A stretch of DNA of 64,000 nt from the NCBI GenBank assembly GCA_965216465.1, contig CBDCFW010000006.1, positions 1,120,001 to 1,184,000 of the forward strand, written 5' to 3'. A program made the position numbers and the translations under genes. The notes beneath the pieces are model-generated. The model saw nothing but the letters and a program-made list of their open reading frames with translations. It was not told the DNA's origin and made no database searches. Below, piece after piece: positions 2-29,812 of this stretch. Position 1 is the stretch's first letter, and each line of letters opens with the position of its first letter. Origin of the DNA: Bacteroidia bacterium (GTDB lineage Bacteria; Bacteroidota; Bacteroidia; NS11-12g; UBA9320).

Positions 2-1348
2 AACGAATCGGTATTAGACATAAACTTATCTACCGATGCAGGAATGTCAGGTGTTTGGTTCAATACACGCTTTGGTCCTGCAAATGGGAATATTACAGGA
101 ATTCCTTTTGGAAGCGAAATAAAGCATAAAGACGTTGGGCCTTATAACATGGAGAATACAGGGAATTCATTTACCCAGAACTTTGATGTATTCTCTAGAG
201 CTACTCGATTAGGCTGCTCATCACAAGAAATAAAACGTACACCAGTTGTTTTACCGCACCTTAATACGACTCTTACCGGAGATGATGACATTTGTTCCGA
301 AGAGGAAATGACGATTTCGTTCAGAAATCAGCTGAATACTGCGCAAAATCTAAGTTACAATTATCGCCTTGATAATTTCAGTTTGCCTCAAGCGGGAAGC
401 GTTACACGTATCAACCAAAAAGATGAAGATGACGACCTAAGTTTTACTGAGACACTCAGAAACAATACCAATGATAAGCAAACGGTAGAATATACATTCA
501 AAGCAAACTACAGCAACCGTTGTTTTTATTCCGATGATTTAACTTGGGAAGTTACCGTAAAGCCTTGGGTAGAGTTTAGCGATCCACCTTATGTTTTAGG
601 GGAAGATGAAGTTTGCGAAAATTCTGGAGTATTTTTCATTATTAATGAAACGGAACCAGGTGGGAATTACACATGGACGACCAGCTCAGACGTAATTGTA
701 ACCCAAGATGCTTCAATTAATGGAGGAATCAGTGCACATTTACAATTCTTAAAATCAGGTACTGAAATCATTCGCATATCAGGTTCAAACCCATCTTTTT
801 GTTCGCAAGAAACCCAGTTTACAGTAAATGTAAATGAGAAGATAGAGGACTTCGATGTCCTCAAAATTCAAAACGTACCGCATGACATGTTAGTCGTTAA
901 TTTAAATGAGTACGACTCGATAAAGTGGGGAACTTTTGACAAAGCGAATGTTGAAACAAGATCAGATTTCTTGTCGACATTCCAAACCCTAGCAGTTGAC
1001 AATTTTGATCCCGATAACTATTTCTATTTCGCAGAAATATTCGATGGAAATTGTAAATCAATGAACTTTTATAACTATGGGGCTTTAGCCGGGCTTCGAG
1101 GTCTTGATCACCGTTTGATTCAAGTCTACCCAAACCCTTCGAGAAATGTAGTTCACTTGGTTTGGAAGGAAAATGGACTAGTTAAAGGTGGCGAAATTCG
1201 AAATGCTCTAGGTCAACATGTAGATTGTGAGTTTATCGATTCGGGCGGTGAGATTATCATAGATGTTGGACACCTAGCAACCGGAGCTTATTTTGGGTCT
1301 GTAATGTTAGACCAAACAATGTATCACTTTAAATTTATTAAGCAATGA
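2..1348 (+). CDS. T9SS type A C-terminal sorting domain protein with Ig/PKD-like domains (5' truncated by window edge)
   Basis: Frame is open from position 2 with no stop before ATG 44. C-terminus IQVYPNPS...IRNALGQ...IDVGHLATGAYF...FKFIKQ is a typical type A CTD. Two 'G.D.[IV]C' Ig-like modules. Confidence 0.8.
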   Translation, partial: NESVLDINLSTDAGMSGVWFNTRFGPANGNITGIPFGSEIKHKDVGPYNMENTGNSFTQNFDVFSRATRLGCSSQEIKRTPVVLPHLNTTLTGDDDICSEEEMTISFRNQLNTAQNLSYNYRLDNFSLPQAGSVTRINQKDEDDDLSFTETLRNNTNDKQTVEYTFKANYSNRCFYSDDLTWEVTVKPWVEFSDPPYVLGEDEVCENSGVFFIINETEPGGNYTWTTSSDVIVTQDASINGGISAHLQFLKSGTEIIRISGSNPSFCSQETQFTVNVNEKIEDFDVLKIQNVPHDMLVVNLNEYDSIKWGTFDKANVETRSDFLSTFQTLAVDNFDPDNYFYFAEIFDGNCKSMNFYNYGALAGLRGLDHRLIQVYPNPSRNVVHLVWKENGLVKGGEIRNALGQHVDCEFIDSGGEIIIDVGHLATGAYFGSVMLDQTMYHFKFIKQ

Positions 1349-2790
1349 GAATGACTATAGTAAATAAATTAAGACTGCTTTTTGCTTGGGTAATTGTGGG
1401 GTTGTTTGTGCTACCAAGTTCAGCTCAGAATGTTAACGACTCAACATTAGTACACAACACCTTGAAACTTGTTTCAGATTATACCAACTATGGTAAAATT
1501 GGAGGGCCACGCGAAAAGCCTAGAGATCTTAAACGTTTTAAGGCAATATTTGGTGACAGCTGTCAGCTTCAAACCTATACATTCTCGTATGGAGAAGGTG
1601 AAGGATCTGGAGAAATGAAGAGCTATTTACTTGAAGATTATTTAAAAGCATACGGCACTGTTTTCAGCGATGGAGTTACCAAAATAAACAACAATTACTA
1701 TGTTGACTATAGCTCGGCGGCTGATGGAAAGGTTAAGGTGTATATGAACGAAATACTCCGTGGTACTAATGATCTTGGAGAGTATATTTTTAGTAAAAGT
1801 GTTAAACTGCTCATTTTAGATGCCAGAAACCCTGAATCAATAGTTGTTTCCAATGTGTTAGACGTGAACACTTCCATTAAAAAACAAGTAGGTAAATCGA
1901 ACGAGTACTTCTACTTTGGTGAGGACCCATATTTGTTTGAACCTCTTGTAAGTGATCCTACTTGGGCTTATAAGCTTGGTTTTAATGTGAGCAATCCTTC
2001 GATTCAAATGCAGAACATTAGTGACCTAACTCTAAACTCAGGAAGCGGGTTTCAAATCGGTATAAATTACTATCACAATTTAGGGAAGACATTTGCTATT
2101 GGGGCAGGGCTGAACTATGCAAGAACGCAATTTGGCTATTCTGCAACCAATCTTGATGCGGAGTACAAGTCGACTGATGCCAATGGCAATGAGTTCAAAC
2201 AATTACTTACGCAAAATGATCTTTACAATGAAGATTTGTCGATACAGAACTTACGTCTTCAAGTGCTTGGTAAATTAAAGTTAGGTAAAATAAATGTTTC
2301 TGGATTTGCTGGTCCAGCGTTTGCCTTTGGCGGGGCTTCAGATTATTCAACAAACTTGAGCTATGAAGCTATTTATGGTATTGACGAAGCTGGCGGGCTG
2401 CACTATGTAGAAGAGCCAAGTGCTCGATCACTGAGTATAACTCGAGAAACGGTAACGCAAAATAGCGGAGAAACAGATTTGTATTTCGGATTGATGCAAA
2501 ATTTAGGCTACAATGTAGCACTTGACCAAGATCAAGATAGAAGTTTTGATACTGAATATAGCCCAGGCATGCACTTTGGTGTAAACCTAAGTTATCGATT
2601 TAGTTTAGGTGCATTTAATGGTGAAGTAGGAGCTGAATTTGCTCAGACTACATACAACGTAAAACAACAGCAGATTGATGAAGACTATTTTACTAACTTA
2701 AGTTCAATTGATAACCTTAACCCCTTAATATACAATGCCAGCAAGCTTTCAGTGAGCGACCTAGGCATCATTTTGATAATTTACCTATAA
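1345..2790 (+). CDS. Exported protein with N-terminal soluble domain and C-terminal outer-membrane beta-barrel
   Basis: Signal peptide (..LPSSA-Q). Alternating-hydrophobic strands such as GFQIGINYYH, FAIGAGLNY, MHFGVNLSYRF. ATGA overlap with the upstream gene. Confidence 0.6.
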   Translation: MRMTIVNKLRLLFAWVIVGLFVLPSSAQNVNDSTLVHNTLKLVSDYTNYGKIGGPREKPRDLKRFKAIFGDSCQLQTYTFSYGEGEGSGEMKSYLLEDYLKAYGTVFSDGVTKINNNYYVDYSSAADGKVKVYMNEILRGTNDLGEYIFSKSVKLLILDARNPESIVVSNVLDVNTSIKKQVGKSNEYFYFGEDPYLFEPLVSDPTWAYKLGFNVSNPSIQMQNISDLTLNSGSGFQIGINYYHNLGKTFAIGAGLNYARTQFGYSATNLDAEYKSTDANGNEFKQLLTQNDLYNEDLSIQNLRLQVLGKLKLGKINVSGFAGPAFAFGGASDYSTNLSYEAIYGIDEAGGLHYVEEPSARSLSITRETVTQNSGETDLYFGLMQNLGYNVALDQDQDRSFDTEYSPGMHFGVNLSYRFSLGAFNGEVGAEFAQTTYNVKQQQIDEDYFTNLSSIDNLNPLIYNASKLSVSDLGIILIIYL

Positions 2791-2792
2791 AC

Positions 2793-3755
2793 ATGAATAA
2801 GAGAATCTTAATAGTTTTTATATCTGTCATTATCCTTGGTTTAGCCATTATTGGTCTAAGGCTGCTACTTGAAGACGAACCTGTTGCAGCTCCAGATCCT
2901 TGTATTGGCTTCTTTACACCACTGCCATCGAGCATTGATGTAGGCCAGAGTTTTATTTTACACTCTAAAGAAGGCAACCTAAGTTGGCGAATTCTTGACG
3001 AAGAGGGAGACGAAATAGAAAGTTTTGATGGTGTTGATGGAGAGTTTACCATGGATTCTGCTGGTAGCTATTCAGTTGAGGTTACCTCAAACAAAGGTTG
3101 TTCAGAAATTACCAGTGTAGAAGTCAGAGGAAAAGAAGAGAAACCAGAAAGAAATGAAAAAGTAGAGATTAAGGGTCCAAATCGTGCGTACGTTGGAAGT
3201 AATGTCAACTTCACAGCCCTAAATGTTGATGCGAATGAGTGCAAATGGAAGATGCCCACAGGTAAGGTTATTAAGCGTAAGAGCAGTGTTTCGTACCGTT
3301 TTGAAGAAACCGGAAACTTTGAAATTAAACTAAGAGTGGATGGAGAAACCTATACCCATCGTGTGAAGGTGACTAAAAGGCAGAATGTAACAACTCCATC
3401 AACCACACCTACAACGACTCCGGTTACGCGACCTCCTGCAAACACAGGTAAAAATTCTCCTGAAAAGGTTAAAGATATAATTACTAAACTTATTGCTTTA
3501 GGTGTTGAAGATTCGGATAATTACAACCCATTTAGAGCAGCTAAGTATCGAAATAACTTTGTTATTGAAGATGAAATTTGTGAAGGTTTTGTGCTTTATG
3601 TAAATGGCAAAGAAACCAAACGAACAGACTTCTTAAGAGGCTTGGGTAAGGATGAAGGAGAAGAAGGTACTGTAGACGACGTAAAATTTAATAGAAACTC
3701 CTCAGGGTGCATCGAATCGTATGAGATTTCAGGGGTTTTCCCAAGGTTAAACTAG
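2793..3755 (+). CDS. Membrane-anchored PKD-domain protein, TssP-like (paralogue 1)
   Basis: N-terminal TM helix, two PKD-like repeats (IKGPNRAYVGSNVNFTA...W...YRFEETGNFEIKL), Pro/Thr linker, lies upstream of tssR-like genes. Confidence 0.6.
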   Translation: MNKRILIVFISVIILGLAIIGLRLLLEDEPVAAPDPCIGFFTPLPSSIDVGQSFILHSKEGNLSWRILDEEGDEIESFDGVDGEFTMDSAGSYSVEVTSNKGCSEITSVEVRGKEEKPERNEKVEIKGPNRAYVGSNVNFTALNVDANECKWKMPTGKVIKRKSSVSYRFEETGNFEIKLRVDGETYTHRVKVTKRQNVTTPSTTPTTTPVTRPPANTGKNSPEKVKDIITKLIALGVEDSDNYNPFRAAKYRNNFVIEDEICEGFVLYVNGKETKRTDFLRGLGKDEGEEGTVDDVKFNRNSSGCIESYEISGVFPRLN

Positions 3756-3766
3756 AAAATTGATAT

Positions 3767-4732
3767 ATGAATAAAAGAATTTTAATATTAGTACTGGCCG
3801 TTTTATTAGTTGCAGGTGTGTTGTTCTTTCTTTCTCAACGCACAAAGTCGACTGGGCCCAAAATCGAAGTAAATGAAGAGTGTTTAGATTTTTATGAATC
3901 TCCGTCACCAAACAACTGGGCAGGCGATACAATTGATCTTAATTCAGTTTCAGAAGAAGATGAGTTAGAGTGGGTATTCATTCAAACTGAAAAAGAAGAT
4001 GTAGAGTATGAAGCGAGTGGGAATTCAACATTTATTGTTATCGATGTAGCAGGCCCATACGTAGGTATTGTTTCAAACCCTGCAGGATGTATTGATACAT
4101 TCTATTTTGAAATTGAGGAACAACTTGTTGAAGAGGAAGAAGATATCAATGTTCGAATTAAAGGACCCGGCTCAGGTATGGTCGGCCAAGAACTAGAATT
4201 TGAGGCTCGAGGTGTTACCGCTGAAAAATATGAATGGTCGATGGGAGAAGCAGGAGGAGTGATTGAGGCCGGAAATAAAATGAAGTATACCTACAATACT
4301 CCTGGTAAGTATCAAATTAAATTGCAGCTAGATAATGGCTTGTATGTTAAGTATAAAACCGTTGTAATCAATCCTGAAAGAGAAGACGTTGTTGAAACAG
4401 TTGATGAGCTAGCCAAGTTGAAAGCCAAATACGAGCAGTCTGCAAAAGCAGCAATTAATGAAATAGTTGGTTTGGGTAGTGCTGATGATTTTGACTACGA
4501 CACCGAGAAGGCAAGAGACTTATTCAATAAGAAATTCAAGAGCAATTACACGTGTGGTGATGTAACATTCGAGGTTAATGGTAAACCCATAGGAGAGCTT
4601 GCATTTTTTAGAGCTCTACAGTACAATGGGTCAACAAGTAACTACAAAGCAACTGATGTAAAATTGGAATACAACAAAGAAGATCAGTGTTTCAATAAGT
4701 ATAAAATTACCGGGTCATTCTCTGGTTTATAA
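3767..4732 (+). CDS. Membrane-anchored PKD-domain protein, TssP-like (paralogue 2)
   Basis: Same MNKRILI start and architecture as 2793-3755. PKD motif IKGPGSGMVGQELEFEA...YEWSMGE...YTYNTPGKYQIKL. Confidence 0.6.
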   Translation: MNKRILILVLAVLLVAGVLFFLSQRTKSTGPKIEVNEECLDFYESPSPNNWAGDTIDLNSVSEEDELEWVFIQTEKEDVEYEASGNSTFIVIDVAGPYVGIVSNPAGCIDTFYFEIEEQLVEEEEDINVRIKGPGSGMVGQELEFEARGVTAEKYEWSMGEAGGVIEAGNKMKYTYNTPGKYQIKLQLDNGLYVKYKTVVINPEREDVVETVDELAKLKAKYEQSAKAAINEIVGLGSADDFDYDTEKARDLFNKKFKSNYTCGDVTFEVNGKPIGELAFFRALQYNGSTSNYKATDVKLEYNKEDQCFNKYKITGSFSGL

Positions 4733-4743
4733 AGATGTAAATT

Positions 4744-5358
4744 ATGAATAGATTTGTTTTAATTCTCGCATTATTTTTTCTGTCGTTCACGGCTGAAAAG
4801 GCACAAGAAAAAACGTTGTCTTTGATTTTCGTTGACAATAGTAAAATTAGTACTTCGGATGGGCTGAACAGTGCAATGATCGATAACATGGAAGCCAAAT
4901 TGACAGAGCTTGACCAACGAGCTGAATCAAATCACTTTATGTTGTACGCTTCAAATGGACTAGAACCTAAGGTTGCAAAAAGTGTAGAGGATGCTAGACA
5001 GGTTTTAGCGACATTAAATGACTCTTATTTTGAGTTCCCCATGCAGCAGTACGATAAGGATAGAATCATTGCTGAATTTACCAAAAGTGATGCTCAAGTT
5101 GGATCTTTGGATTTGAACTTCTATGTGTCCTATACTTACGCAGAGAAATTTATTACAGATCAACCGGCAGTGCTTGGAAATCTTGTGTCTGAGCTAACGA
5201 TGAAATATGGGCTGGAACGAGAAGATAAAGTGGTGATAAACCTTCACTATCCGAAGGCTCAAAACCTTCCGAAAAATATGCAGGAAAATCTTGAAGAAAG
5301 CATATCGATTCTTAAATTTGGCCTAAATGTTGAAATAAACATTCTTGAACACAATTAG
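4744..5358 (+). CDS. Exported hypothetical protein in T6SS locus
   Basis: 204 aa ORF with signal peptide, tightly packed between the PKD genes and the tssR-like genes. Confidence 0.6.
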   Translation: MNRFVLILALFFLSFTAEKAQEKTLSLIFVDNSKISTSDGLNSAMIDNMEAKLTELDQRAESNHFMLYASNGLEPKVAKSVEDARQVLATLNDSYFEFPMQQYDKDRIIAEFTKSDAQVGSLDLNFYVSYTYAEKFITDQPAVLGNLVSELTMKYGLEREDKVVINLHYPKAQNLPKNMQENLEESISILKFGLNVEINILEHN

Positions 5359-5365
5359 TAGTATT

Positions 5366-7798
5366 ATGAAACTGAAACTGACCTCTATTTTAACATTCTT
5401 AATTTTTGCGTATTCGTCAAACTGCCTCGCTCAGATAGGTGGGAGTAAGGACAAAGTCTTAAAAAAGCCGGTTAAATATGAAAGTCCTGAAGGACCAACA
5501 GGAGATATTCTGAGACCTACAGCCGAAAGAAGTGGCAAGAATTGGGTAGTGTTTTCTGACCGAAAAGACAACCAAACTTATGTAGATAAAGATCTTACTC
5601 GTCCGTATCGTCAAATTGATTTTCTTACCGCATATTATGTCCTTGAAGAGACTTCAATTGCACTTAAGGTAATTCCTTACCGACCAGAACTACTAACCCG
5701 AAGTGATGGTCTAAAGAAAAGTGTAAATCCAAATGAAGTGGGATGGGTAAGTAAGAAAGAAATGTTACTCTGGGATCACTCATTACTAGATCCTAAAACC
5801 AAATTTACGCTTAAAGCATTTTCGGTTCAGAAGCCCGAAGCAATATTAAATCCTGGTAGATATGTATCTCAAAACAAGGTGCATGTGTATGCTAGTCCTG
5901 AACTTAACCCTAATACAGAATTAGATATAGAACTCAGACTTTTTCAATTCTTGTTTGTGCTAAAGGAAGATGCTGCGAACAATTCAGTACTTGTTGCAAA
6001 AAAGAATAGTATTTCAGCAGGCAGTGCAGATGTTGCTGTACTTGGCTGGGTGAGTAAGTCTATTATTCAACTGTGGAAAGAAAGACTCTGTTTAGAACCA
6101 AACTCTGACCCCGATGCAAGCCAAGAGAGAAAGACTAACAAAATTAAATCTTCAATTTATGAAGACAAAGACGATGCACTTGCGGTAAAGATTGGAAGAG
6201 AACCTAAAAAAGGAGCTATGTGGCAGCGAGATAGTTATGAAGCTAAGATGGATCCTGACATGAAAAGATTCCCTGTTATTGAAGCCAATGATGGTGTGTA
6301 CAAGACAGGTTTTATTACCGGGTTACTAAACGAAAATGGAGTTGAAATTAACACCCCAGAAGCCCAAGCAATATTTAGCAAGTCATATCACGGAACAAGA
6401 AGCTCAGCATCAAAGATTAATGTGGTTTATGTGGTTGATGGAAATACCAATTACAAATCATATTTGAGACCAATCTTAGAGTCAATTAACAACAGTTATA
6501 AGAAGTTTGCTAATGTTGAAAATGCCTCAGAGAACACCTACCAATTTGGTGCCGTAGTTTATCGAAACTCAGCCTATAAAAACTGCAGTCCAGATAGAAG
6601 TGTCGTTCCTATCGGGTTGAGTTCTAAATTCCAGTCGATGACTAGTAAGCTGAAGACAGAAATAGAATCTGAAGCTTGCCAAGTAGGAACGAACCGTAAG
6701 TTTAGTTCACTCGATAAAGGAATGGTGAGAGCCTTGAGGATGTTCCAAAATCCTGATGAAACCAATATAGTAATCATAATAGGAGCTACGGGTTATGCTA
6801 GAACCGGAAACGACATCAATAAAGATATTGTTAAACGCTGCGTAAACAAGAACGTATCAATCCTCGGATTTCAATTATACTTTAGCCAGGATGTAGAATA
6901 CGACGAATTCTATAATCAAGTGCGTTATTGGATGAAGAATACGGCCTTTACGATTGATAAATTAACAGATGTTACCAATCAGTTCGAGCCTAAGGTAGAT
7001 AGAGTACCAGGAGAAACCAACTCGTTTCAATTAATTAACTGTGCTGTAACAGGCTATTTTCTCGGTGTTGATATCAATGAGTGGCTGAATGGTGCTGACC
7101 TGAATAGGAAGCTCCAGCAAGCAATTATGGATCAGGAGCGAAAGAACAACGCTCTTATGAAGAAGATGGATTCAGAAATGGAAGGAATGGGGGCCTCCGA
7201 TGTTAAACTAGACCCCGAATTGCTCCTGTTCTTGCACAAAATGGATCTACCCTATGACAAGATTGTTGAGTTTGTTAATAATATCAAAGCTGGAGATAAA
7301 GACTCCTATACCTTCTTTATTGAGGGCTATGCCCCTAGCGAAATATCCGGGTTAGATTATCCAACATTTAGCAATGTTATTCTAATGGATTATGACGAAT
7401 GGAGTATTCTTGATAATGCCCTTACCGACATTAGTTATGCAATTACTGCCCTCGATGATAATAGTACTAGAGAATCACTGAAAAAGGCTTATTGGGAAAC
7501 CTTAGTGTCCTATTATGGAAGAAAAGAAGCCAAGACCTTGGTGAAGGAAAAACCGCTAGATTACATCAACGAATTGCTGATCGGAATGTCTTATCAAGGT
7601 AATAGTCTGATAAGAAATCTAAAACTTGACGACATCTCTGATGAAGCGTTGTTTCCAAGAGAAAAACTCTTAGAGTATATCGAGTATATTTCTGAAAAAC
7701 AGAAGTTATTCAAGTCTACCGGAAACCCATCCAATGGATATTCGTTTAAAAGTTTTAACAAAAGGTACTACTGGGTGCCTTCAAATTATTTGCCTTAG
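5366..7798 (+). CDS. tssR: T6SSiii TssR-like protein with VWA-like domain (paralogue 1)
   Basis: Signal peptide from ATG 5366. WVVFSDRKDNQTY, GWVSKKEMLLW, INVVYVVDG (VWA-like), FGAVVYR and terminal YYWVPSNYLP resemble Bacteroidota TssR. Confidence 0.75.
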   Translation: MKLKLTSILTFLIFAYSSNCLAQIGGSKDKVLKKPVKYESPEGPTGDILRPTAERSGKNWVVFSDRKDNQTYVDKDLTRPYRQIDFLTAYYVLEETSIALKVIPYRPELLTRSDGLKKSVNPNEVGWVSKKEMLLWDHSLLDPKTKFTLKAFSVQKPEAILNPGRYVSQNKVHVYASPELNPNTELDIELRLFQFLFVLKEDAANNSVLVAKKNSISAGSADVAVLGWVSKSIIQLWKERLCLEPNSDPDASQERKTNKIKSSIYEDKDDALAVKIGREPKKGAMWQRDSYEAKMDPDMKRFPVIEANDGVYKTGFITGLLNENGVEINTPEAQAIFSKSYHGTRSSASKINVVYVVDGNTNYKSYLRPILESINNSYKKFANVENASENTYQFGAVVYRNSAYKNCSPDRSVVPIGLSSKFQSMTSKLKTEIESEACQVGTNRKFSSLDKGMVRALRMFQNPDETNIVIIIGATGYARTGNDINKDIVKRCVNKNVSILGFQLYFSQDVEYDEFYNQVRYWMKNTAFTIDKLTDVTNQFEPKVDRVPGETNSFQLINCAVTGYFLGVDINEWLNGADLNRKLQQAIMDQERKNNALMKKMDSEMEGMGASDVKLDPELLLFLHKMDLPYDKIVEFVNNIKAGDKDSYTFFIEGYAPSEISGLDYPTFSNVILMDYDEWSILDNALTDISYAITALDDNSTRESLKKAYWETLVSYYGRKEAKTLVKEKPLDYINELLIGMSYQGNSLIRNLKLDDISDEALFPREKLLEYIEYISEKQKLFKSTGNPSNGYSFKSFNKRYYWVPSNYLP

Positions 7799-7810
7799 AA
7801 ATTACCCCAT

Positions 7811-10225: not shown

Positions 10226-10227
10226 AA

Positions 10228-17353: not shown

Positions 17354-17358
17354 TAAAT

Positions 17359-17814: not shown

Positions 17815-17825
17815 TAAGTAGAGTA

Positions 17826-19202: not shown

Positions 19203-19241
19203 TTAATTTGAAAACTAATAATAACCTTAAAACATTAAATT

Positions 19242-19634: not shown

Positions 19635-19652
19635 AATTTATACATAAAATAA

Positions 19653-19685
19653 GTGGTAGCTATGATTTCGTAGTTACCACATTTT
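19653..19685 (+). terminator. Hairpin between hcp and vgrG (partial terminator or mRNA-stabilising stem)
   Basis: gtggtagctatg-attt-cgtagttaccac stem with G-U pairs, followed by atttt. Confidence 0.55.
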
Positions 19686-19697
19686 CATTAGAATACT

Positions 19698-21545: not shown

Positions 21546-21986
21546 ATGAGAAATGCACGTTATCTTGGAATACCAATCAACTTTGCTAAGCTCAATCAAG
21601 GGGCTAGAATTCGCGATATAGATTTTAACGAATCAATTGCCCAATACATATACACAATTCTAATAACCGAATGCGGAGAATTAAGCTCTGACAAAGACTT
21701 CGGCACAACTGTATGGGATTATGATTTTACGATAACCAACTTTACATCAGAGTGGAAAGATTCGGTTTCAAGCTCAATAGGATCAGCTATTAAAAGATAT
21801 ATCACCCAACTTGACAATATTCGAGTTGATGTCGAAATCGCAGATGAACAATACTCCGATAAGGTAAAAAATGCACTTCGAATCAAGAAAAAGATTACTA
21901 TAAAAGTTACCGGTCAGTTGAAATCTACAAAAGAAGACTATGCTTTCAACCAATCGCTTTATCTTAGCCCAATAACTGTTGAATAA
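21546..21986 (+). CDS. tssE: T6SS baseplate TssE (gp25-like)
   Basis: SIAQYI..IL.T..GE...DFG..VWD.DF; terminal LSP motif. Confidence 0.85.
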   Translation: MRNARYLGIPINFAKLNQGARIRDIDFNESIAQYIYTILITECGELSSDKDFGTTVWDYDFTITNFTSEWKDSVSSSIGSAIKRYITQLDNIRVDVEIADEQYSDKVKNALRIKKKITIKVTGQLKSTKEDYAFNQSLYLSPITVE

Positions 21987-23850
21987 ATTGACAAGACGTA
22001 GTATTGAATCCAGAAATGAAATCTTATCTAGATTAACTAAAACAGCACTTCAGCATTGGGGTGTACAGAATAAGGATATAGATTCGTTTGACCCTGTAGT
22101 TAAGCTACTGCTGTCAGGATTCGCACAAGAGATTCACCGCGTTTATCACGAAATTGAAAATGCAAATATTCGTGTTCTCAGACAGCTAAGTTCAATTCTA
22201 AATCCAGGATATCATGCCGGAGTGAATCCTGCTCATGCTTTGCTTCAATTGTCGCCAACGGAACCGAAGGTAGAAGTGAATAAATACTCTCAGTTCAAGG
22301 TGTTAAAGGCCAAAGAACGCAGACTTGAGCAAGAGATTAAAATGGAAGAAGTAGAAGTATTTTTCTCTCCATTAAATTTTTACACTTTGCACGATGTTTA
22401 CTTAGGTCGAAAAGTAGTAGGCAACTACATCTATGAGTATGATAAAGAAGGACAACAAATCGAAAGAAGTAAGGTTACATTAAATACTGCCCTAGAAGAA
22501 AATGAGGTACTCTTAGGGTTGTGTGTTACAAACAGACTGGACAAGATTAATCAACTTTCTCTGCAAATTGATTGGAAAAATATTATGTCCAGAAAGCAGC
22601 TCCAGGAGCTATTAGGTGATTGCGAGTTTATATTGGGAAATGAAATTATAAAATCTTCAGTTGGAATTGCACGTTCTCGAAATATGAAGGAGGAATCTTT
22701 TCAAATTCCAGCGTTTCAACGGGCACAACAGGTTACTCAAAAGCTTGAGGTAGAGATTGCTGACCTCTATAAGAAGCAGTATCTTTCTTTAGACCTTCAA
22801 AACATAAATCTTCAAGAAGTTCAAAACCACTATTCAGAGATTGAAGAATCCCAACACGTGGGTTCAAATTACCGTGTGGTTTGGATTAAAGTAAAGTTTA
22901 ACCCAAATATTGATAAGTCAATCAATGCACATCTTGTAGTTCGAACCAATTGCATACCTGTTGTCAATAGAAGGTACGAACAACTCAATGTTGACATTTC
23001 AAATACGGCTAAGATAATACCACTCACCACGATTAATTCTGAGTTTTTAGACCTGATTTCAGTAACCGATGAAGAAAAGAAGAAGTTTGTAGTAGGAAAT
23101 TCGGTTAGTAAATCACAAGATCAAGAAGATAGAACCTATGTTCTCAGAGAAAGTGGAATTGAGCGTTTTGACAGCAGAGACTCTAAAGAACTTTTACTTC
23201 ATCTCATCGATTTACTGCGAGACGAAAGTGCTGTGTTTTCAGCAATTGGAATAGATTTTCTAAGTGCCATTCTTAAAGATTTGAATCAAAGCATTAATCT
23301 ACTTGAACAGAAGTCGCTTGATCAGCTTGATGAATTACAAAATCACACACATTATTTGACCATAAAGGCACCAGATAATTGCAGAACCATCTTTGTAGAC
23401 TTTTGGTCTTGTGCAGGTCAATTTGGAAATAATCTAGGACCTAATGATCGAGTTGTTACCGAAACAATGCTTGATGTAAATGATTCGCTTACGCAATTTA
23501 TTTCGATGACGGCTGGCGGCCGAGATAAGAAGATTGGTGATGATGAATTGTCAGGGTTGAAGCGTTCGATGATTTCTGGAGGTAAAGTAGTTACGAAGAT
23601 TGACATTGTTCTATTTGTACAAGATGAATTCGGAGAATACATAGATCATGTTGAAGTTAAGAATGGTGGTATGGTTAGCGAAAAGATGAATGAAGGGTAC
23701 ATATCTACAGTTGATGTTCATATAGACCCTATAGAGGTTGAAGAAGATAGCAACTTCAAACTTGAGGAGCTAATGGTAGAAATAAAATCCAAATTGGAAA
23801 TGCATTCACCACCATACTACAATTATAGAGTGCTTCAAGCTTCAAATTAG
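21979..23850 (+). CDS. tssF: T6SSiii baseplate TssF
   Basis: WG....D.FDPVVKLL, PAHALL, NCIPVVNR, ERFD.R, LLRDE...FS, GGRD, KVVT..DI motifs. Confidence 0.88.
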   Translation: MNKLTRRSIESRNEILSRLTKTALQHWGVQNKDIDSFDPVVKLLLSGFAQEIHRVYHEIENANIRVLRQLSSILNPGYHAGVNPAHALLQLSPTEPKVEVNKYSQFKVLKAKERRLEQEIKMEEVEVFFSPLNFYTLHDVYLGRKVVGNYIYEYDKEGQQIERSKVTLNTALEENEVLLGLCVTNRLDKINQLSLQIDWKNIMSRKQLQELLGDCEFILGNEIIKSSVGIARSRNMKEESFQIPAFQRAQQVTQKLEVEIADLYKKQYLSLDLQNINLQEVQNHYSEIEESQHVGSNYRVVWIKVKFNPNIDKSINAHLVVRTNCIPVVNRRYEQLNVDISNTAKIIPLTTINSEFLDLISVTDEEKKKFVVGNSVSKSQDQEDRTYVLRESGIERFDSRDSKELLLHLIDLLRDESAVFSAIGIDFLSAILKDLNQSINLLEQKSLDQLDELQNHTHYLTIKAPDNCRTIFVDFWSCAGQFGNNLGPNDRVVTETMLDVNDSLTQFISMTAGGRDKKIGDDELSGLKRSMISGGKVVTKIDIVLFVQDEFGEYIDHVEVKNGGMVSEKMNEGYISTVDVHIDPIEVEEDSNFKLEELMVEIKSKLEMHSPPYYNYRVLQASN

Positions 23851-23924: not shown

Positions 23925-24437
23925 ATGGGAAAACCTGCTGCAAGATTAACAGACTTTCATGCTTGCCCGATGGTAACACCGGGTGTTCCACCGATTCCAC
24001 ATGTTGGTGGTCCAATAATAGGTAGTGGATGTCTTACAGTACTGATTGCTGGCATGCCAGCAGCAGTAATGGGTGATCAGTGTATGTGTACAGGTCCACC
24101 TGATGTGGCTATATTGGGCTCGACAGGCGTATTTATCGGAAAAAAAATGGCTTTGCGTATGGGCGATAGTACGGCTCATGGAGGAACCATCGTGGCGGGA
24201 GCTCCAACGGTATTAATCGGTGAAATGAAACCAGGCGGACCACCTGCTCCTTTACCACCAAGTGTTGCCAACATGGTGAACAACATGAAGTCGCAAGCGA
24301 AAAGTAACCAACCTGGAGGTCTATCACAAATATTCTCAGGTTCTAAAGGTAAATTCTCTTCTGCGTCTTTTTCAAGCTCGCTATCCGAAGCAGCTCAAAA
24401 TAACTCGCCATTCATTCATGCATGCGAACAGTGTTAA
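23925..24437 (+). CDS. PAAR-domain spike tip protein with C-terminal extension
   Basis: GKPAARLTDFHACP, GMPAAVMGD, ALRMGDSTAHGG; about 70 aa tail ending SPFIHACEQC. Confidence 0.92.
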   Translation: MGKPAARLTDFHACPMVTPGVPPIPHVGGPIIGSGCLTVLIAGMPAAVMGDQCMCTGPPDVAILGSTGVFIGKKMALRMGDSTAHGGTIVAGAPTVLIGEMKPGGPPAPLPPSVANMVNNMKSQAKSNQPGGLSQIFSGSKGKFSSASFSSSLSEAAQNNSPFIHACEQC

Positions 24438-24440: not shown

Positions 24441-24803
24441 ATGAGAAACTTAGTCATACTCAATCCTCAATTTGAAAAAATTAAAGCCATTTATAAAATG
24501 GACTTTATCTCGCGTGTGTATGACGAGCTTGTCGAAATTCATGGAGCCAATCTTGGTTTAGACAATAAAGAACTCTCATTTGAAATACTAGATGATTTGG
24601 TTGACGAAGCTAAAGAATTTGATTTTGAAACTGAGGGCGATGTTTTTTATTATATCACCAAGTTCTATGAATATGACTTTTTGCAAGAAAGACCACTCGA
24701 AGATAAGGTGGTTGAAATTCTTACGTGGCCGGACCGGGATTCGTATACAAAGTTTGAACTATTAGAAGAATATAAAGCAGAAAATGGGCCAGAAGAAAGT
24801 TGA
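24441..24803 (+). CDS. Small acidic helical protein, putative effector chaperone
   Basis: 120 aa and very acidic. Q.......F..R...L...A..F.F..E.DV..YI pattern resembles the C-terminal half of DUF4123-type adaptors. Confidence 0.5.
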   Translation: MRNLVILNPQFEKIKAIYKMDFISRVYDELVEIHGANLGLDNKELSFEILDDLVDEAKEFDFETEGDVFYYITKFYEYDFLQERPLEDKVVEILTWPDRDSYTKFELLEEYKAENGPEES

Positions 24804-26211
24804 TAATAGCGTTCAATCTTGTTCTCAGCCTCATGAATCTGAAAATAATGAGTGCAATCATTCAGGATTAATTCTCAGCGTGAACGACTTGAGTTTTAAA
24901 ACCGACGAGACAACCAAGCACAAAACGGTTGCGATTGTTGCTGGAAATGATAAAACGCGTAAAGATGTTGAACTTGAACCGTTAGGACTTGTCGGTCCTT
25001 GTGCAACCCATACCGACAAGGTTTTTGATGCCAAAACTAGCAATGGCGATGAAAAATCTGACCAAAAGTTAAAAATCAAATTGGGTTCAGAAGACCCAAG
25101 AGAATTCAGCACAAAAGGAATAAAGGACTTCTTTTGGCCAAAAGGGGCAAGCCCCAAGCATTATGATGTAAAATGCAATACTTGCGGTCAGAATCACAGT
25201 TATGGTATTGACGTTTATCCAGATATAACGTGGGAGCTCGAAATCGGTGGAAAGATGGAAGTTGATGGTAATACGGGTAAGACTGATTTTGGATTTGACG
25301 CGGGTATAGAAGCCAAATATGATGGGGAGCAAGTGGTGAAGTTTGAAACGGGATCGAGCGAGAATGAAGAAGAATACTCCACCATCGACACCATTATTGA
25401 TCTCATGTATGGAACGAAGAAAGTGGTTGCTGAATTTAGTGAGTTTTGTTCAAAGGGAGAAGGTGAATTCAAATTGGAACACGGTGTTAAACTGAAAGCT
25501 AACTACGGTTGGGAAGAGGTTCCTGGAACTCCTACTGTTGATCATGCCGTAGACCTGACTCTGTCGCTAGACCCTATGTTGAAAATTGAGTTGAGCAAAG
25601 ACTTTGCAGGGCCTTTATTACACGCAATTCCGGGTGTTGGGAGTGCATTAGCAGGTATTGTTTGGCTCATGGAAAAAGCAAAAACGGGTAAGCTAGATTT
25701 GGTTGCAGGTTGTAGTGGTGAGTATAAAGCAGATTTTCATTTGATGCATATTGCAGGTGACGCAACGGACAAAAGAAACCAAGTTGATATTGCAGGAGGC
25801 ATTGAATTTTATATGAAGTTTAATGCCGAGGTGCACGTGACGGTAGGAGTAGGTTTTGGATATGAATCACGAACATCTGGGAAGTTTGAGGCAGGAGGGA
25901 AAGCAAAATTTGGATTGGAAGCAGGAGGAGAAAATAGAAAGCTTGTTAACGGTGAAGATTCAGTTAGCGCCTACATGAAATTTGGATTTTTAGGTCTTTA
26001 TCTGTACTACATTGCTGCAGTAAATCAGGGTATTGCCAAAAGCGGATCTAAGAGCCACTTAAGTACGGAATTTAAAGATGAAGGCAAAGCCGGAGAGGAT
26101 GATGCTCCTGATGACGGAGGTGAAAAACCTGAGGCTGACAAGCAAACGGTTACCTATAAAATAATTGATGCTTTCTCGATTGTAGAAAAATCATTAAAAC
26201 TAGTGAAATAG
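24784..26211 (+). CDS. Putative T6SS effector of unknown activity
   Basis: No signal peptide, downstream of PAAR, CxxC (CNTC), hydrophobic Gly-rich segment GPLLHAIPGVGSALAGIVWLM. Confidence 0.5.
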   Translation: MGQKKVDNSVQSCSQPHESENNECNHSGLILSVNDLSFKTDETTKHKTVAIVAGNDKTRKDVELEPLGLVGPCATHTDKVFDAKTSNGDEKSDQKLKIKLGSEDPREFSTKGIKDFFWPKGASPKHYDVKCNTCGQNHSYGIDVYPDITWELEIGGKMEVDGNTGKTDFGFDAGIEAKYDGEQVVKFETGSSENEEEYSTIDTIIDLMYGTKKVVAEFSEFCSKGEGEFKLEHGVKLKANYGWEEVPGTPTVDHAVDLTLSLDPMLKIELSKDFAGPLLHAIPGVGSALAGIVWLMEKAKTGKLDLVAGCSGEYKADFHLMHIAGDATDKRNQVDIAGGIEFYMKFNAEVHVTVGVGFGYESRTSGKFEAGGKAKFGLEAGGENRKLVNGEDSVSAYMKFGFLGLYLYYIAAVNQGIAKSGSKSHLSTEFKDEGKAGEDDAPDDGGEKPEADKQTVTYKIIDAFSIVEKSLKLVK

Positions 26212-26215
26212 AAAG

Positions 26216-26983
26216 TTGAAGAGACCAGTTTACATACTTAATTACTCTGTTGAGGTAGGTTCATTTGAGCTTTCAATAAACGACATACCTGTTGTAGTTG
26301 ATGGGGATATTGGAAATGTGTTTTCAAGAATTGCACTGAACCCATGGGTTCGTAAAGGAGAAAACTACGTTACTTTAAAAATTGAGAATACCTCAGATAA
26401 CAAGCTTAAAGAGAGTAAGGCCTCTATGGAATTGGGCCTGGTCGAAAGCCACGACCGTCTTGAAGAAGGCAAACAGGTTGTCGAATCTAAAGAAACGGAT
26501 AGCTCAATCGCGTCTATGACATCTACCACGATCAGGATCGTTTTTGTCTCTGATATTGAGCACCTAAATCCAATCTATGAAACTAATGGCGAGCGTCTAA
26601 AACCGAGTCCTAAACTTTTTAAACAGCTGCTTGAGAAGTACCAAGAGATTCATGGTATAATGAAGAACAAAGACCTTAATTCATTTTTGACACTTAATCG
26701 TGTAAAAGATATGGAGTGGTCTTCTTCTGTTTATCTGTCGTATGAAGATCGCGTAAAAGAGATTCGCATGATGTTTGATGAGATATTTAAACTCGACTTA
26801 CTGAAAATAGAGCAAAGTATGATTGAGCTAAAGGTGTTTAACGAAGGAAAGCTGTTTGCAATTCAGTACCCAAAAGGCTTTGATTTGATTTGTTTTGCGA
26901 ACAAAGATTTAACTCATTTTGAGTATATTCCTATAGTGTTTTACTTCGATAAAACAGAAAAAGATTTTATTTTAGTGAGGTAG
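26216..26983 (+). CDS. Hypothetical protein, candidate immunity protein
   Basis: Starts 4 nt after the putative effector; no signal peptide; FEL.INDIPV...LNPW..KGEN motif. Confidence 0.45.
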   Translation: MKRPVYILNYSVEVGSFELSINDIPVVVDGDIGNVFSRIALNPWVRKGENYVTLKIENTSDNKLKESKASMELGLVESHDRLEEGKQVVESKETDSSIASMTSTTIRIVFVSDIEHLNPIYETNGERLKPSPKLFKQLLEKYQEIHGIMKNKDLNSFLTLNRVKDMEWSSSVYLSYEDRVKEIRMMFDEIFKLDLLKIEQSMIELKVFNEGKLFAIQYPKGFDLICFANKDLTHFEYIPIVFYFDKTEKDFILVR

Positions 26984-26985
26984 AT

Positions 26986-28236
26986 ATGGAGACCTATTAC
27001 ATAATAGATGCAGCAAAGTATCCGCTTGTTATAGCTGAGGGAGAGACCTTGCCCAAAGGTTTGATTCCTCTCTTATTAGGCACGCGATACAAATCTTCGT
27101 ATTTGCTCGGACCTTTTTTAGTCACCCAAAAAGAGTTTAAAGACCTCGATTCTTGGTTTTATACCGACGGCTTTTATGACATTATGAAGATTGATACAGA
27201 AATCAGAGATGCTGTGTCAATGGCAAATCTGATGCGATCAAAGCTAGAGGTTGATACAGAAGATGGACACACCTTGTTCTTTAGATATTACGACCCGAAG
27301 GTATTTCGTATGATGGCACCTATGCTTACCGAAGACCAGTTAAATGACTTCTATAAGCACATTGAAAGCATATCTATTTACGATTTGGATTATCAATCAC
27401 TATACGCCACCAAAGTCAAAAATAAGAAGCTTGAAGAAACGATAGAGCCTTTGCCCGAGAATGGGGGGAGTATGAAAAAAATCAAGTTTCCTCTACCAAC
27501 CTTAAGTCAGGTGAAGTGTTTAAATAAGCTTAAAGGAGCTAAAAGTGATTTAGAACTTCAGTATGGAGCGAAAATAAAACGATTAAATAAGTTAATTGAG
27601 TCTAATGCAAGTCCTGCACTTATTCACGCTGAAATAGAACGAATTACTGGTCAACAAATCAATGCACAAAGCTTATTCGACAAAAAGGGAGGCGCTGTTA
27701 AATCAAAAATGTCTAAGCTCCGTGCAAAGTCGTTTCAAATAGCAAGCATGCGAAATCAGCAACAGACCAAAATGGAGCAGCCAATTAAAGATCTTGCAGC
27801 TTTGAAGCGTAAACACAACCCCATTAGAGGCATTATGAATAAGAAGAATGCACTCGAACAAGATGCAACAACTAAGTTGAACAAAGCAAAACTGCAGGCA
27901 AGAAACAAGTCAGGCTTAACAAAAGCTCAGCAAGAATTAAGCAAAGCAAAATCTAATAAGGAGGTATTAGAGCATCGCCTTAAAACAGCAGATAATAAAG
28001 CCAAGAATAAAGTACTCTCAAAGGTGCAAAATAAAACAGCCGATCTGCGTACACTACAAGACCTCTCCAAGAACCCTAAGTCGGTAAACCAAGGAATAAC
28101 CAAAGTTAATAAACTTCATGCTATGGCTTCTAAGTACAAGGAAAAAGGAGAAAAAAAGAAAAAAGAAGAGCAGAAAAAGAAGAAAGAAGAACAGAAACCA
28201 ACCAAGATTAAAAAGAGTTGGGATTTAGATTTTTAG
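26986..28236 (+). CDS. DUF4123 (TEC/Tap) T6SS adaptor fused to a Lys-rich coiled-coil tail
   Basis: YYIIDAA, GPFLV and LFFRYYDPKVFR are DUF4123 hallmarks; the C-terminal ~250 aa are highly basic. Confidence 0.75.
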   Translation: METYYIIDAAKYPLVIAEGETLPKGLIPLLLGTRYKSSYLLGPFLVTQKEFKDLDSWFYTDGFYDIMKIDTEIRDAVSMANLMRSKLEVDTEDGHTLFFRYYDPKVFRMMAPMLTEDQLNDFYKHIESISIYDLDYQSLYATKVKNKKLEETIEPLPENGGSMKKIKFPLPTLSQVKCLNKLKGAKSDLELQYGAKIKRLNKLIESNASPALIHAEIERITGQQINAQSLFDKKGGAVKSKMSKLRAKSFQIASMRNQQQTKMEQPIKDLAALKRKHNPIRGIMNKKNALEQDATTKLNKAKLQARNKSGLTKAQQELSKAKSNKEVLEHRLKTADNKAKNKVLSKVQNKTADLRTLQDLSKNPKSVNQGITKVNKLHAMASKYKEKGEKKKKEEQKKKKEEQKPTKIKKSWDLDF

Positions 28237-28239
28237 TGA

Positions 28240-29082
28240 ATGGGTAAGGCATACACACGATGGAGGCGCTCACCAGGACTCTTTGATACTGTATTGGTGG
28301 GGATAGATGGAACTGGTTCTTCTGATGACTCTTCTTATGCTTCAGCGTATCAACACAGTTTTGTAAACGAAATATATGACCGATCAAGAGTAAAGAATAA
28401 ATACTATTTTAGAGGTCCATCCCTTCTTGGTTTTGAACGAAAAGCTCTTAAAACAATACTCGATGCAACATTAAGTGGTGGACAAAGTTTCGCCAATCCC
28501 CGTAGAAAGTTTAAAATCTTATTGATGGGATGGAGTAGAGGAGGAGCAGCCTGTATTCATATTGCAAAAGAACTACAACGCTACAACATTGATGTGAAAG
28601 CCATGCTGCTTTTTGATCCTGTAGATCGGGATTTGGCACTTAGTACAGGTAGAGTACCAAACAATGTTAAAGATGCCTTAACCATTGTAAGAAGGCCAGA
28701 AACAGGCTCATGGGAAAGTTTTGGCTATGCTATCGATAATATTGACTTCAACAATACGAGTAGATATCAGCATTCATCAAATCACAGCATTGTTACAATC
28801 TTTGGTACTCACGCTGCAATTGGGGGAGTGGTAGGCCCAAAAGAAGGATATGCCGCGGTCGAAACTAGAGGCCAAGGCAAATTGTATATGGGAGATGCTA
28901 GTATGGCCGATCCTTATGGGATATCACGTGATTATGTTCAAGCTAAAGCATATTTCGGGCAAGAGAATGACATGCATGTAAAAATGCTAACCTCACATGT
29001 TTCGTTTGACGACGACTTAAAAGCACGCAAACTTGTTAAGCACGAAATAAAAGGATTCTTAAGCAAACATGGTTACGTGTAG
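28240..29082 (+). CDS. Tle1-like (DUF2235) phospholipase effector
   Basis: VGIDGTG, YFRGP, MGWSRGGAA (nucleophile), LFDPV and FGTHAAIGG match the DUF2235 motif order. Confidence 0.7.
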   Translation: MGKAYTRWRRSPGLFDTVLVGIDGTGSSDDSSYASAYQHSFVNEIYDRSRVKNKYYFRGPSLLGFERKALKTILDATLSGGQSFANPRRKFKILLMGWSRGGAACIHIAKELQRYNIDVKAMLLFDPVDRDLALSTGRVPNNVKDALTIVRRPETGSWESFGYAIDNIDFNNTSRYQHSSNHSIVTIFGTHAAIGGVVGPKEGYAAVETRGQGKLYMGDASMADPYGISRDYVQAKAYFGQENDMHVKMLTSHVSFDDDLKARKLVKHEIKGFLSKHGYV

Positions 29083-29167
29083 TTGATATTTAGCTGATGA
29101 ACAACTAACTTTACTAACTTTGTTTATTGTGGTCTGGTTTTTGAACGTTATAAACTAAGCCTTTGGT

Positions 29168-29812
29168 TTGAAAAAACGTACATACATAATATTGTTGTTT
29201 GCCTTTACACTGATATCGGCAAATCTAGATAACGGTAGAAAGTACTGGGACTTTAACAAAGATTTACCACCAGCTTTTGAGTTTTATGGTGATACTTGGG
29301 AAACCAATAAGGTTGGTCAAGGAATAGTATCCAAAGAAATGATGGAGTGGGGCTATGAACTTACACTCGAAACAGACACCTCAAAATACATTCATCCTAG
29401 CTTTGGAGATATTACCTCTAAGTATGGAATGAGATGGGGTAAGCTGCACAAAGGAATCGACATACATGTTGCACATGATGAACCCATTTATGCAGCATTT
29501 GACGGCGTAGTGCGGTTAAGAACCTATCAAAGCGAAGGTTATGGCAACGTATTGGTAATTCGCCATTTTAACGGTTTAGAAACGCTGTATGCCCATTTAA
29601 GTGAGTTGCCCGATTTAAAACAGAATGAAATTGTAAAAGGGGGCCAACTTATTGCACTTGGAGGCAATACTGGAACCAGTACGGGCACCCATTTACACTT
29701 CGAAACAAGATTTTTGGGGTACGCAATTGATCCGGCTAAATTTATCGATTTTGAAACCTACAAACTTCGTGAAAGTGTGGTTAAAGTGGATGAAACTTGG
29801 ATTGATTGGTAA
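29168..29812 (+). CDS. M23 family metallopeptidase
   Basis: HKGID, YGN..VIRH.NGLETLYAHL, GTHLHFETR; signal peptide. Confidence 0.92.
   Translation: MKKRTYIILLFAFTLISANLDNGRKYWDFNKDLPPAFEFYGDTWETNKVGQGIVSKEMMEWGYELTLETDTSKYIHPSFGDITSKYGMRWGKLHKGIDIHVAHDEPIYAAFDGVVRLRTYQSEGYGNVLVIRHFNGLETLYAHLSELPDLKQNEIVKGGQLIALGGNTGTSTGTHLHFETRFLGYAIDPAKFIDFETYKLRESVVKVDETWIDW

Follow-up and report, generated by a model that had tools for sequence, protein, structure and literature searches.

How the Bacteroidota type VI secretion system (T6SS) crosses and grips the cell envelope is understood only in part, and where its membrane complex came from is still to be explained. Among the closest described systems is that of Bacteroides fragilis, a class iii T6SS (T6SSiii) whose TssNQOPR membrane complex includes TssP and TssR as individually essential, structural parts (PMC10781749). 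The locus described here lies in a 64,000-nucleotide stretch of DNA (hereafter, the window) from a Bacteroidia bacterium (contig CBDCFW010000006.1, positions 1,120,001 to 1,184,000). Like the B. fragilis system, it has TssR with four Pfam domains, proteins with the TssP layout, tssP near tssR, and no TssJLM (TssJ, TssL, and TssM had no Pfam match in the window). It differs in that a MacB-type ATP-binding cassette (ABC) protein, an outer membrane (OM) barrel, a von Willebrand factor A (VWA) protein, and a surface protein of the type IX secretion system (T9SS) are interleaved with tssP and tssR; in that tssP and tssR are duplicated; in that most TssR proteins of the family lack a lipoprotein signal; and in that no TssO or TssQ is recognizable in the window and tssN, tssK, and tssG are not among its 64 kb. 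The window is a recurrent T6SSiii architecture with a conserved, ABC-centered envelope cassette, and this cassette is not exclusive to the T6SS.

Two other systems invite comparison. The TagQRST-PpkA-PppA-Fha threonine phosphorylation pathway of the Pseudomonas aeruginosa H1-T6SS, a class i T6SS (T6SSi), likewise places an FtsX/LolC/MacB-type ABC with periplasmic and OM partners in a T6SS locus, and it is a precedent for an ABC in a T6SSi locus that the initial annotation of the window had not recognized. The window belongs to another T6SS class and another phylum, and its ABC is a fused protein whose periplasmic domain is much larger. The class iv system (T6SSiv) of Aureispira, as presented in the accessible part of the preprint (bioRxiv 10.1101/2024.01.29.577165), is likewise a Bacteroidota contractile system with surface structures and a complex spanning OM, periplasm, and inner membrane (IM) that is unlike TssJLM. 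The same source describes the GhpA/GhpB/GhpC grappling-hook cluster, in which T9SS cargo is encoded alongside a PorP-like barrel and an OmpA protein resembling PorE. The window, however, holds a T6SSiii and not a T6SSiv, and the sole sequence link is the presence of PKD domains. Full-text searches, with subscription journals and supplements outside their coverage, returned no account of the cassette, of any ABC in a T6SSiii locus, or of an ABC that partners TssR, and the available portion of a 2026 review of accessory factors names only TagA, TagB, and TagC for Bacteroidota (PMC13584744). The proposal of a distinct T6SSiii architecture, not recognized as described before, is partly supported, with the addition that it recurs in relatives.

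The window opens with one uninterrupted gene string on the + strand (2-34423), in which all open reading frames (ORFs) of at least 80 aa that tile it are co-oriented in the ORF listing. Between 2 and 23850, the junctions are overlaps or gaps of 0 to 74 nt, as the initial annotation had indicated; ATGA overlaps at 1345-1348 and 12681-12684 and a 41-nt gap before tssH were read directly in the sequence, and the gaps ahead of tssH run from 2 to 41 nt. Nine genes precede tssH and not the eight counted initially, when the 204-aa gene at 4744-5358 was omitted. In order, they encode a T9SS type A C-terminal domain (CTD) surface protein whose gene has its 5' end outside the window (2-1348), an OM beta-barrel protein of 481 aa with a signal peptide (1345-2790), TssP-like a (2793-3755), TssP-like b (3767-4732), the small secreted VWA-fold protein p204 of 204 aa (4744-5358), TssR-a of 817 aa (5345-7798), TssR-b of 804 aa (7811-10225), the fused MacB-type (type VII) ABC (10228-12684), and a 713-aa DUF5723-like/TSP3/OmpA-like protein (12681-14822). 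The genes tssH-tssB-tssC-hcp-vgrG-tssE-tssF-PAAR follow, and then cargo. Domain calls were made from Pfam and NCBIfam scans, the former over 58 ORFs of the window.

The ABC belongs to a large family, with 554 representative proteins at E ≤ 1e-30 in an exhaustive HMMER search and dozens of full-length fused proteins among the best 150. A word-index search with the C-terminal part of the ABC had returned 3 relatives, a count that was dropped because the HMMER search shows the family to be large. For a survey of gene neighborhoods, as had been suggested with the initial annotation, the ABC permease alone served as the query (alignment A1), and the best 80 of 229 relatives were retrieved from species-representative genomes with 10-kb flanks; the window's own genome is not among these 80 loci, which carry L numbers below. 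A TssR-like gene lies directly upstream of the ABC and on the same strand in 72 of the 80; the remaining 8 have under 600 nt of sequence on that side, so that the two genes adjoin in 72 of 72 testable loci. The rest of the cassette usually precedes them. Among 63 loci examined by ORF clustering, profile searches, and Pfam, 50 have a p204-like gene immediately upstream of tssR, 50 have a barrel within four ORFs, 43 have a TssP-like gene, and 37 have p204, barrel, and TssP-like gene together. The tree of the ABC places that of the window in a 17-row clade whose fused ABCs come from Flavobacteriales, Chitinophagaceae, Saprospiraceae, and unclassified Bacteroidota metagenome-assembled genomes (MAGs), with a support of 100 in the Shimodaira-Hasegawa-like approximate likelihood ratio test (SH-aLRT), and the TssR tree recovers the same clade (SH-aLRT 100). 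These results show that TssR and the ABC are co-inherited and that their gene order is conserved.

Six of the surveyed loci carry record titles from elsewhere in the tree of life (L011, L014, L027, L030, L035, and L038, titled Enterobacteriaceae, Caldiserica, Thioalkalivibrio, an archaeon, Eggerthellaceae, and Treponemataceae). All of them except L011 nest closely among Bacteroidales in the ABC tree, whereas L011 forms a solitary long branch basal to the large Bacteroidales clade. The odd titles likely reflect contigs placed in the wrong MAG bin.

T6SS core genes were found within 10 kb of the cassette, by profile and tblastn searches, in 13 of the 80 loci and in 10 of the 45 with at least 8 kb on both sides. 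In the clade of the window, 11 of 17 rows (the window counted) are linked to a T6SS within 10 kb. In five loci (L001, L004, L026, L067, and L068), genes for the CTD protein, barrel, TssP-like protein, p204-like protein, TssR, and ABC are followed by tssH-tssB-tssC-hcp-vgrG(-tssE-tssF), and in four from Saprospiraceae MAGs (L022, L041, L048, and L064), the order is TssR-ABC-x-x-TssO-TssO-TssN-TssK-TssB-TssC, with a short TssR after the ABC in L048 and L064. Since the same ordered cassette stands directly ahead of T6SS genes in all of these loci, the upstream genes of the window are not chance neighbors. Tandem TssP-like genes and a second TssR-like gene without the VWA domain also recur in T6SS-linked relatives, whereas two full-length TssR genes are particular to the window among the loci compared. 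We would put at about evens the reading that, in the window's lineage, the TssP and TssR components of the T6SSiii membrane complex come from the conserved envelope cassette, which adds to them an ATP-driven IM partner and an OM/surface part.

Several points weigh against this reading. In 67 of the 80 loci, no T6SS core gene was found in the fetched DNA, and of the 45 loci with 8 kb or more on each side, 35 likewise showed none. In the window's own clade, 6 of the 17 rows are not T6SS-linked, of which L023, L066, and L073 have short flanks and L019, L071, and L075 have about 10 kb downstream, and a large Bacteroidales clade (40 rows, with split ABCs) has zero T6SS genes in the fetched DNA. The TssP-like proteins have no sequence-level link to bona fide TssP, as Pfam and NCBIfam gave no TssP match and a search with the family profile (alignment A2) returned 9 proteins, none named TssP. 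That the ABC touches TssR, p204, or TssP is so far a proposal. B. fragilis forms a working T6SSiii membrane complex without any ABC, and the text of PMC10781749 contains 0 occurrences of "ABC." Lastly, the completeness of the T6SS is unproven because the window lacks tssG, tssK, and tssN.

The first of these points bears on what the cassette is. Because 67 of the 80 loci have no T6SS genes within 10 kb, we regard the cassette as a self-contained unit that has become joined to the T6SS in some lineages. The initial annotation had named homologs of the upstream genes unlinked to a T6SS as a finding that would refute it; as judged within 10 kb, such homologs exist, in 6 of the 17 rows of the window's clade among others, and this speaks against it in part. 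Its proposal that the trans-envelope part of the system is rebuilt or supplemented holds insofar as duplicated TssP and TssR, an ABC, and a barrel are joined to a T6SS recurrently, but this is not simply a rebuilt membrane complex, since the cassette also occurs with no T6SS genes nearby. The 40-row clade consists mostly of gut and rumen Bacteroidales MAGs, 12 of its loci being titled Alistipes, and its cassette comprises barrel, TssP-like protein, p204-like protein, TssR-like protein, ATPase, and permease. Its TssR-like proteins pass the Pfam gathering scores for TssR. The p204 families of the two main groups (the window's and the Bacteroidales) are homologous (hhalign probability 96.7%) and the TssP-like families have at least the C-terminal domain in common (probability 88%). 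Coyne et al. 2016 found homologs of TssN to TssR "almost exclusively" in T6SS loci (PMC4714493), and Bongiovanni et al. 2024 state that the membrane complex has no homologs outside T6SS loci (PMC10781749), in each case in the portion of the text available. Our observations suggest that TssR-like and TssP-like proteins do occur away from T6SS loci, as judged within 10 kb on each side in the loci sampled here.

The flanks of the 40-row clade encode Ser/Thr kinases, PP2C, FHA or FHA-trypsin proteins, BACON giants, and WG-repeat proteins. Over the whole sample, clusters of Ser/Thr kinase, PP2C, or FHA genes stand beside the cassette in 36 loci, mostly of gut Bacteroidales, and none of these is among the 13 T6SS-linked loci. 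The cassette might therefore be an independent envelope machine, an ABC-powered surface appendage or a device for adhesion or signaling, that merely lies beside the T6SS in some lineages and whose TssR-like and TssP-like proteins are paralogs that do not serve the T6SS. The scarcity of T6SS core genes (13 of 80 loci), the separation of the 36 signaling-gene loci from the T6SS-linked set, and the company kept there (BACON giants, trypsin-like proteases, tubulin-like proteins, and SrfB/SrfC-like proteins) all fit such a machine, as does the fact that 12 of these loci are titled Alistipes, a genus in which Coyne et al. 2016 (PMC4714493, in the text available) found no T6SS in nine genomes. Nevertheless, the cassette forms a contiguous, co-oriented stretch with tssH or with tssO/N/K in 10 other loci of the window's clade, and these T6SS-linked loci have no TssR-like or TssP-like gene apart from it, save that in L048 and L064, a second, short TssR directly follows the ABC. 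A T6SSiii is reported to need TssP and TssR (PMC10781749, in part), and the absence of a T6SS was judged within 10 kb only, in a class whose genes are often split over several loci (PMC10781749, in part). We consider an independent machine unlikely, if not negligibly so.

In four loci, other genes follow the cassette: L010 (11536-18393), L043 (11929-15191), L020, and L028 have either SrfB-like and SrfC-like (Virul_Fac) proteins and a subtilase or a Tubulin_2 protein and a trypsin-like protease.

The kinase, PP2C, and FHA genes beside the 36 cassettes are also the likeness that connects this family with TagQRST. By analogy, the ABC with its periplasmic and OM partners could be a sensor of envelope contact or damage that switches firing on, and not a structural part. 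In the accessible text of PMC13584744, the ABC-like TagTS complex works together with a periplasmic protein and an OM lipoprotein, upstream of PpkA/PppA/Fha. The first gene of the cassette encodes a surface protein, and extracellular antennae of the Aureispira T6SSiv have been proposed to signal (bioRxiv 10.1101/2024.01.29.577165, in the part available). Yet no Ser/Thr kinase, PP2C, or FHA gene was found by Pfam in the window or near the cassette in the 13 T6SS-linked loci; TssP and TssR are structural in B. fragilis (PMC10781749, in part); and homology to TagQ or TagR was not seen, no search aimed at it having been made. A sensor of this kind seems to us quite improbable.

Both TssR copies of the window pass the gathering scores of all four TssR domains of Pfam (PF17643, PF20780, PF20782, and PF20781), which are the N-terminal barrel, the second domain, the VWA domain, and the C-terminal domain. 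TssR-a scores 84.9 bits for TssR_VWA, 59.9 for TssR, 52.2 for TssR_M, and 48.3 for TssR_C, and TssR-b scores 117.1, 61.0, 58.9, and 40.6 bits, against cut-offs of 25.7. The copies share 31% identity over 794 aa, and a tree of 71 TssR-like proteins joins them as sisters (SH-aLRT 100, long branches being flagged); by these comparisons, the tandem tssR is evidently an old, lineage-specific duplication. TssR of B. fragilis is described, in the available part of the source, as a lipoprotein processed by signal peptidase II (PMC10781749). Within the cassette family, the N-termini of TssR-like proteins are mostly signal peptides without a conserved (lipobox) Cys. Both window copies have a Cys 3 to 4 residues before an A|Q site, where most family members have none. 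Profile A7 of the TssR-like proteins matched no sequence in the Protein Data Bank (PDB).

Of the 37 TssR-like proteins in alignment A7, 22 retain the first metal ion-dependent adhesion site (MIDAS) motif (DxT/SxS) of the VWA domain. The motif is present in every sampled gut or rumen Bacteroidales member without T6SS genes, and both window copies and most T6SS-linked relatives have lost it. A second, shorter TssR-like gene adjoins the ABC in six loci (L048, at 11542-13086, L064, L008, L018, L009, and L078); the short TssR of L048 and L064 (514 aa) has the N, M, and C domains without the VWA insert, and that of L009 (345 aa) is limited to the N and M domains.

The TssP-like genes sit two and three genes upstream of tssR-a. 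Their products have an N-terminal membrane anchor, two PKD-type domains, and a C-terminal domain; copies a and b score 27.8 and 24.7 bits for Pfam PKD, respectively, and each has a hydrophobic N-terminus. The family profile A2 matches collagenase PKD structures, including 2y72, twice, at positions 36-106 and 113-190. According to the part of PMC10781749 available, TssP of B. fragilis has a transmembrane (TM) helix at 1-32, PKD-like D2 at 33-109 and D3 at 110-192, and then D4, and it is because the two PKD matches fit these domains that we speak of the TssP layout. TssP-like a belongs to ORF cluster C14, whose members occupy the equivalent position in relatives. Copy b is an old paralog of copy a (26% identity over 291 aa, E 4e-19).

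The protein overlooked initially, p204, is a conserved member of the cassette. It has no Pfam or NCBIfam family match, and an AlphaFold2 (AF2) model (predicted local distance difference test [pLDDT] score, 90.8; predicted TM-score [pTM], 0.86) gives it a VWA-type alpha/beta domain. All of the leading matches in a Foldseek search of the PDB are VWA domains (best E 4.7e-6, TM ~0.55), and VWA is also the lead from features of the ESM protein language model (0.91).

At the outer end of the cassette, the CTD of the surface protein scores 28.8 bits for TIGR04183 (cut-off, 23) and 26.8 for Pfam Por_Secre_tail (PF18962), just below the cut-off of 27, with a weak PKD_6 match besides. Its tblastn relatives are at the equivalent position in L026, L041, L064, and L068, and a Por_Secre_tail protein heads the cassette in the window's group, as verified with Pfam in L001, L019, L026, L048, L068, L071, and L074. 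The barrel scores 29.4 bits for OMP_b-brl_2 (cut-off, 27), and tblastn matches it to the barrel genes of L068 and L075.

The ABC (ABC_tran, 95.7 bits; FtsX, 30.7 bits) has an N-terminal ATPase, TM1, a periplasmic domain of ~330 aa with extra elements, and three more TM helices. In its AF2 model (pLDDT 88.7), helices at 304-337 and 667-807 flank a periplasmic alpha/beta domain, and the best whole-chain Foldseek matches are MacB (5gko, 5lil, 5lj7, and 5nik; TM-scores normalized by target [TMt], 0.61 to 0.65). Residues of the Walker A, signature, Walker B, and H-loop motifs are invariant in alignment A6 (60 sequences), and the families nearest to the ATPase domain are LolD, MacB, and FtsE. Model and alignment together show a predicted MacB-class, type VII fold with intact catalytic motifs. 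The type VII ABCs MacB, LolCDE, FtsEX, and YbbAP have in common with it the topology ATPase-TM1-periplasmic domain-three TM helices and the Pfam family FtsX. Members of this group do mechanical work on periplasmic partners. Unlike MacB, LolCDE, and FtsEX, the window's ABC lacks partners of the MacA/TolC, LolA, or EnvC type and has TssR as its constant neighbor and a periplasmic domain of ~330 aa.

The nearest families of the ATPase domain and the MacB-like fold could also be those of an ordinary exporter, either an efflux pump like MacAB-TolC or a Lol-like extractor that delivers lipoprotein TssR to the OM. We regard this as very improbable because no membrane-fusion protein or TolC-type family was found by Pfam among the 58 ORFs of the window and because TssR-like proteins mostly lack a lipobox Cys; moreover, the periplasmic domain exceeds that of the matched MacB chains, and the TM-score normalized by query (TMq) is only ~0.5. 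The Lol-like form, with lipidated TssR as its substrate, is rejected in view of the N-termini of most TssR-like proteins. An M23 peptidase acting as a partner in the manner of FtsEX/EnvC is likewise rejected, since the peptidase encoded downstream in the window has no counterpart in any of the 80 loci (tblastn).

The 713-aa protein between the ABC and tssH had been annotated as a barrel-TSP3-OmpA anchor. The TSP3 and OmpA parts are borne out: Pfam TSP_3 scores 43.3 bits, and residues 462-692 match the OmpA-family structure 5wtl, a TSP3 and OmpA-like periplasmic portion, at E 1.2e-44, although Pfam itself gives no OmpA match. The N-terminal ~430 aa have no Pfam match, and the barrel proposed there is backed only by the ESM match to DUF5723 (0.95, 204 features in common), so that this part is best called DUF5723-like; a word-index search with the N-terminal 450 aa returned only the query. 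The gene is a singleton in the ORF clustering and stands between ABC and tssH in none of the 80 loci; in relatives, TSP3, Ig, or cadherin repeats are carried by the barrel protein instead. Other T6SS clusters likewise have an OmpA-like protein next to membrane-complex genes, namely, the OmpA/MotB-like accessory proteins TagL, TagP, and TagI (PMC10781749 and PMC13584744, in the portions available). The window's protein differs from these in its DUF5723-like/TSP3/OmpA composition of a Bacteroidota family and in being unique among the 80 loci.

Returning to the reading in which the cassette serves the T6SSiii, its order (T9SS-exported surface protein, OM barrel, IM-anchored TssP-like protein, periplasmic VWA protein p204, TssR, and MacB-type ABC) suggests how it might work. 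The ABC and TssP-like proteins are predicted to lie in the IM, p204 and TssR in the periplasm, the barrel in the OM, and the CTD protein at the surface, and together they would form one envelope-spanning complex that serves as, or with, the membrane complex of the T6SSiii. The role that we infer for the ABC is that of a dimer in which ATP would move the large periplasmic domain, as in type VII ABCs, so as to act on TssR, p204, or TssP, and this action might assemble, gate, or activate the complex. A complex prediction with the periplasmic domain of the ABC (338-666), TssR-b (23-245), and p204 (22-204) gave a score of 0.00, with no verdict and no controls, and counts neither way. The barrel would provide OM attachment in place of the lipid anchor of TssR, because TssR proteins of the cassette family mostly lack that anchor. 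In the window's lineage, tssP and tssR are duplicated in addition, and the inserted OmpA-like protein could tie the complex to the cell wall. The initial annotation had spoken of a mechanotransducer, of contact sensing, and of an anchor, roles that remain inference. The MacB-type ABC is an invariant neighbor of tssR throughout a large family and is embedded in the T6SSiii loci of several non-Bacteroidales lineages, which suggests that there is an ATP-dependent step in the assembly of the membrane complex or in firing.

A broader interpretation is that TssP and TssR did not originate with the T6SS. They might come from an older, widespread, ABC-driven trans-envelope machine made of surface protein, barrel, TssP-like protein, VWA protein, TssR-like protein, and ABC, the T6SSiii being a contractile tail joined to that machine. 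We hold this only tentatively, somewhat short of an even chance. If it were true, the machine of gut and rumen Bacteroidales would work without a T6SS and would be wired to Ser/Thr kinase, PP2C, and FHA signaling, and the window would represent the two after joining, the ABC and possibly a surface "antenna" having been retained. It would also be the ancestral system that, in the available text of PMC10781749, Bongiovanni et al. sought and did not find; a cassette that bears Pfam TssR and stands beside phospho-signaling genes with no T6SS nearby is a candidate for such a co-opted system.

The contractile core of the window, with TssB, TssC, Hcp, VgrG, TssE, TssF, and ClpV/TssH, lies at 14864-23850. 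TssH/ClpV (14864-17353; AAA_2, AAA_lid_9, and ClpB_D2-small) scores 602.7 bits for TIGR03345, below the cut-off of 884.95, and is 52 to 53% identical to the product of the gene at the equivalent position in L001, L004, L026, L067, and L068. TssB (17359-17814) has a weak VipA match (20.6 bits) and is 42 to 50% identical to its counterparts in relatives. TssC (17826-19202; Pfam, 699.6 bits), Hcp (19242-19634; Pfam TssD, 152.4 bits), VgrG (19698-21545; Phage_base_V, 80.8 bits; TIGR01646, 141.7 bits), TssE (21546-21986; GPW_gp25, 30.8 bits), and TssF (21979-23850; T6SS_TssF, 32.9 bits) follow, and then a PAAR protein (23925-24437; PAAR_motif, 69.1 bits). The genes tssG, tssK, tssN, and tssO were not found in the 64-kb window by Pfam or by tblastn with 30 queries from relatives, which gave one spurious weak match, and tssG, tssK, and tssN are presumably encoded at another site in the genome, as split loci are common.

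Consensus scans for promoters and terminators say little about co-transcription or operon structure. Bacteroidota promoters differ from the sigma-70 consensus, and the 46 promoter-like sites found compare with 55.6 expected. The strongest terminator-like site in 1-20000, and the only strong one, is a hairpin with a 12-bp stem (19653-19680) in the 63-nt gap between hcp and vgrG.

Five cargo-like ORFs at 24441-29082 are presumed cargo. Among them, a DUF4123 adaptor with a long Lys-rich tail (26986-28236; DUF4123, 39.6 bits) precedes a 280-aa protein whose translation has a GWSRG serine-hydrolase-like motif (28240-29082), and a weak NCBIfam Tla1 match on the adaptor suggests that the two may be a Tle1-type lipase effector pair. 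Apart from the adaptor, the cargo-like ORFs have no family match, the neighboring ones of 120, 475, and 255 aa included. The secreted M23 peptidase (29168-29812; Peptidase_M23, 96.5 bits) is of uncertain membership in the system. Co-oriented directly after the cargo, 29926-33030 encodes a 575-aa secreted protein with a WD40 propeller and a second, caspase-like protein, the latter with a Pfam Peptidase_C14 match and 74.7 bits for NCBIfam caspase_w_EACC1, below the cut-off of 140. A few genes further downstream, a WG_beta_rep protein is encoded at 37462-39219, and WG-repeat giants (cluster C17; e.g., L025:15471-18608) follow the cassette in 9 Bacteroidales loci.

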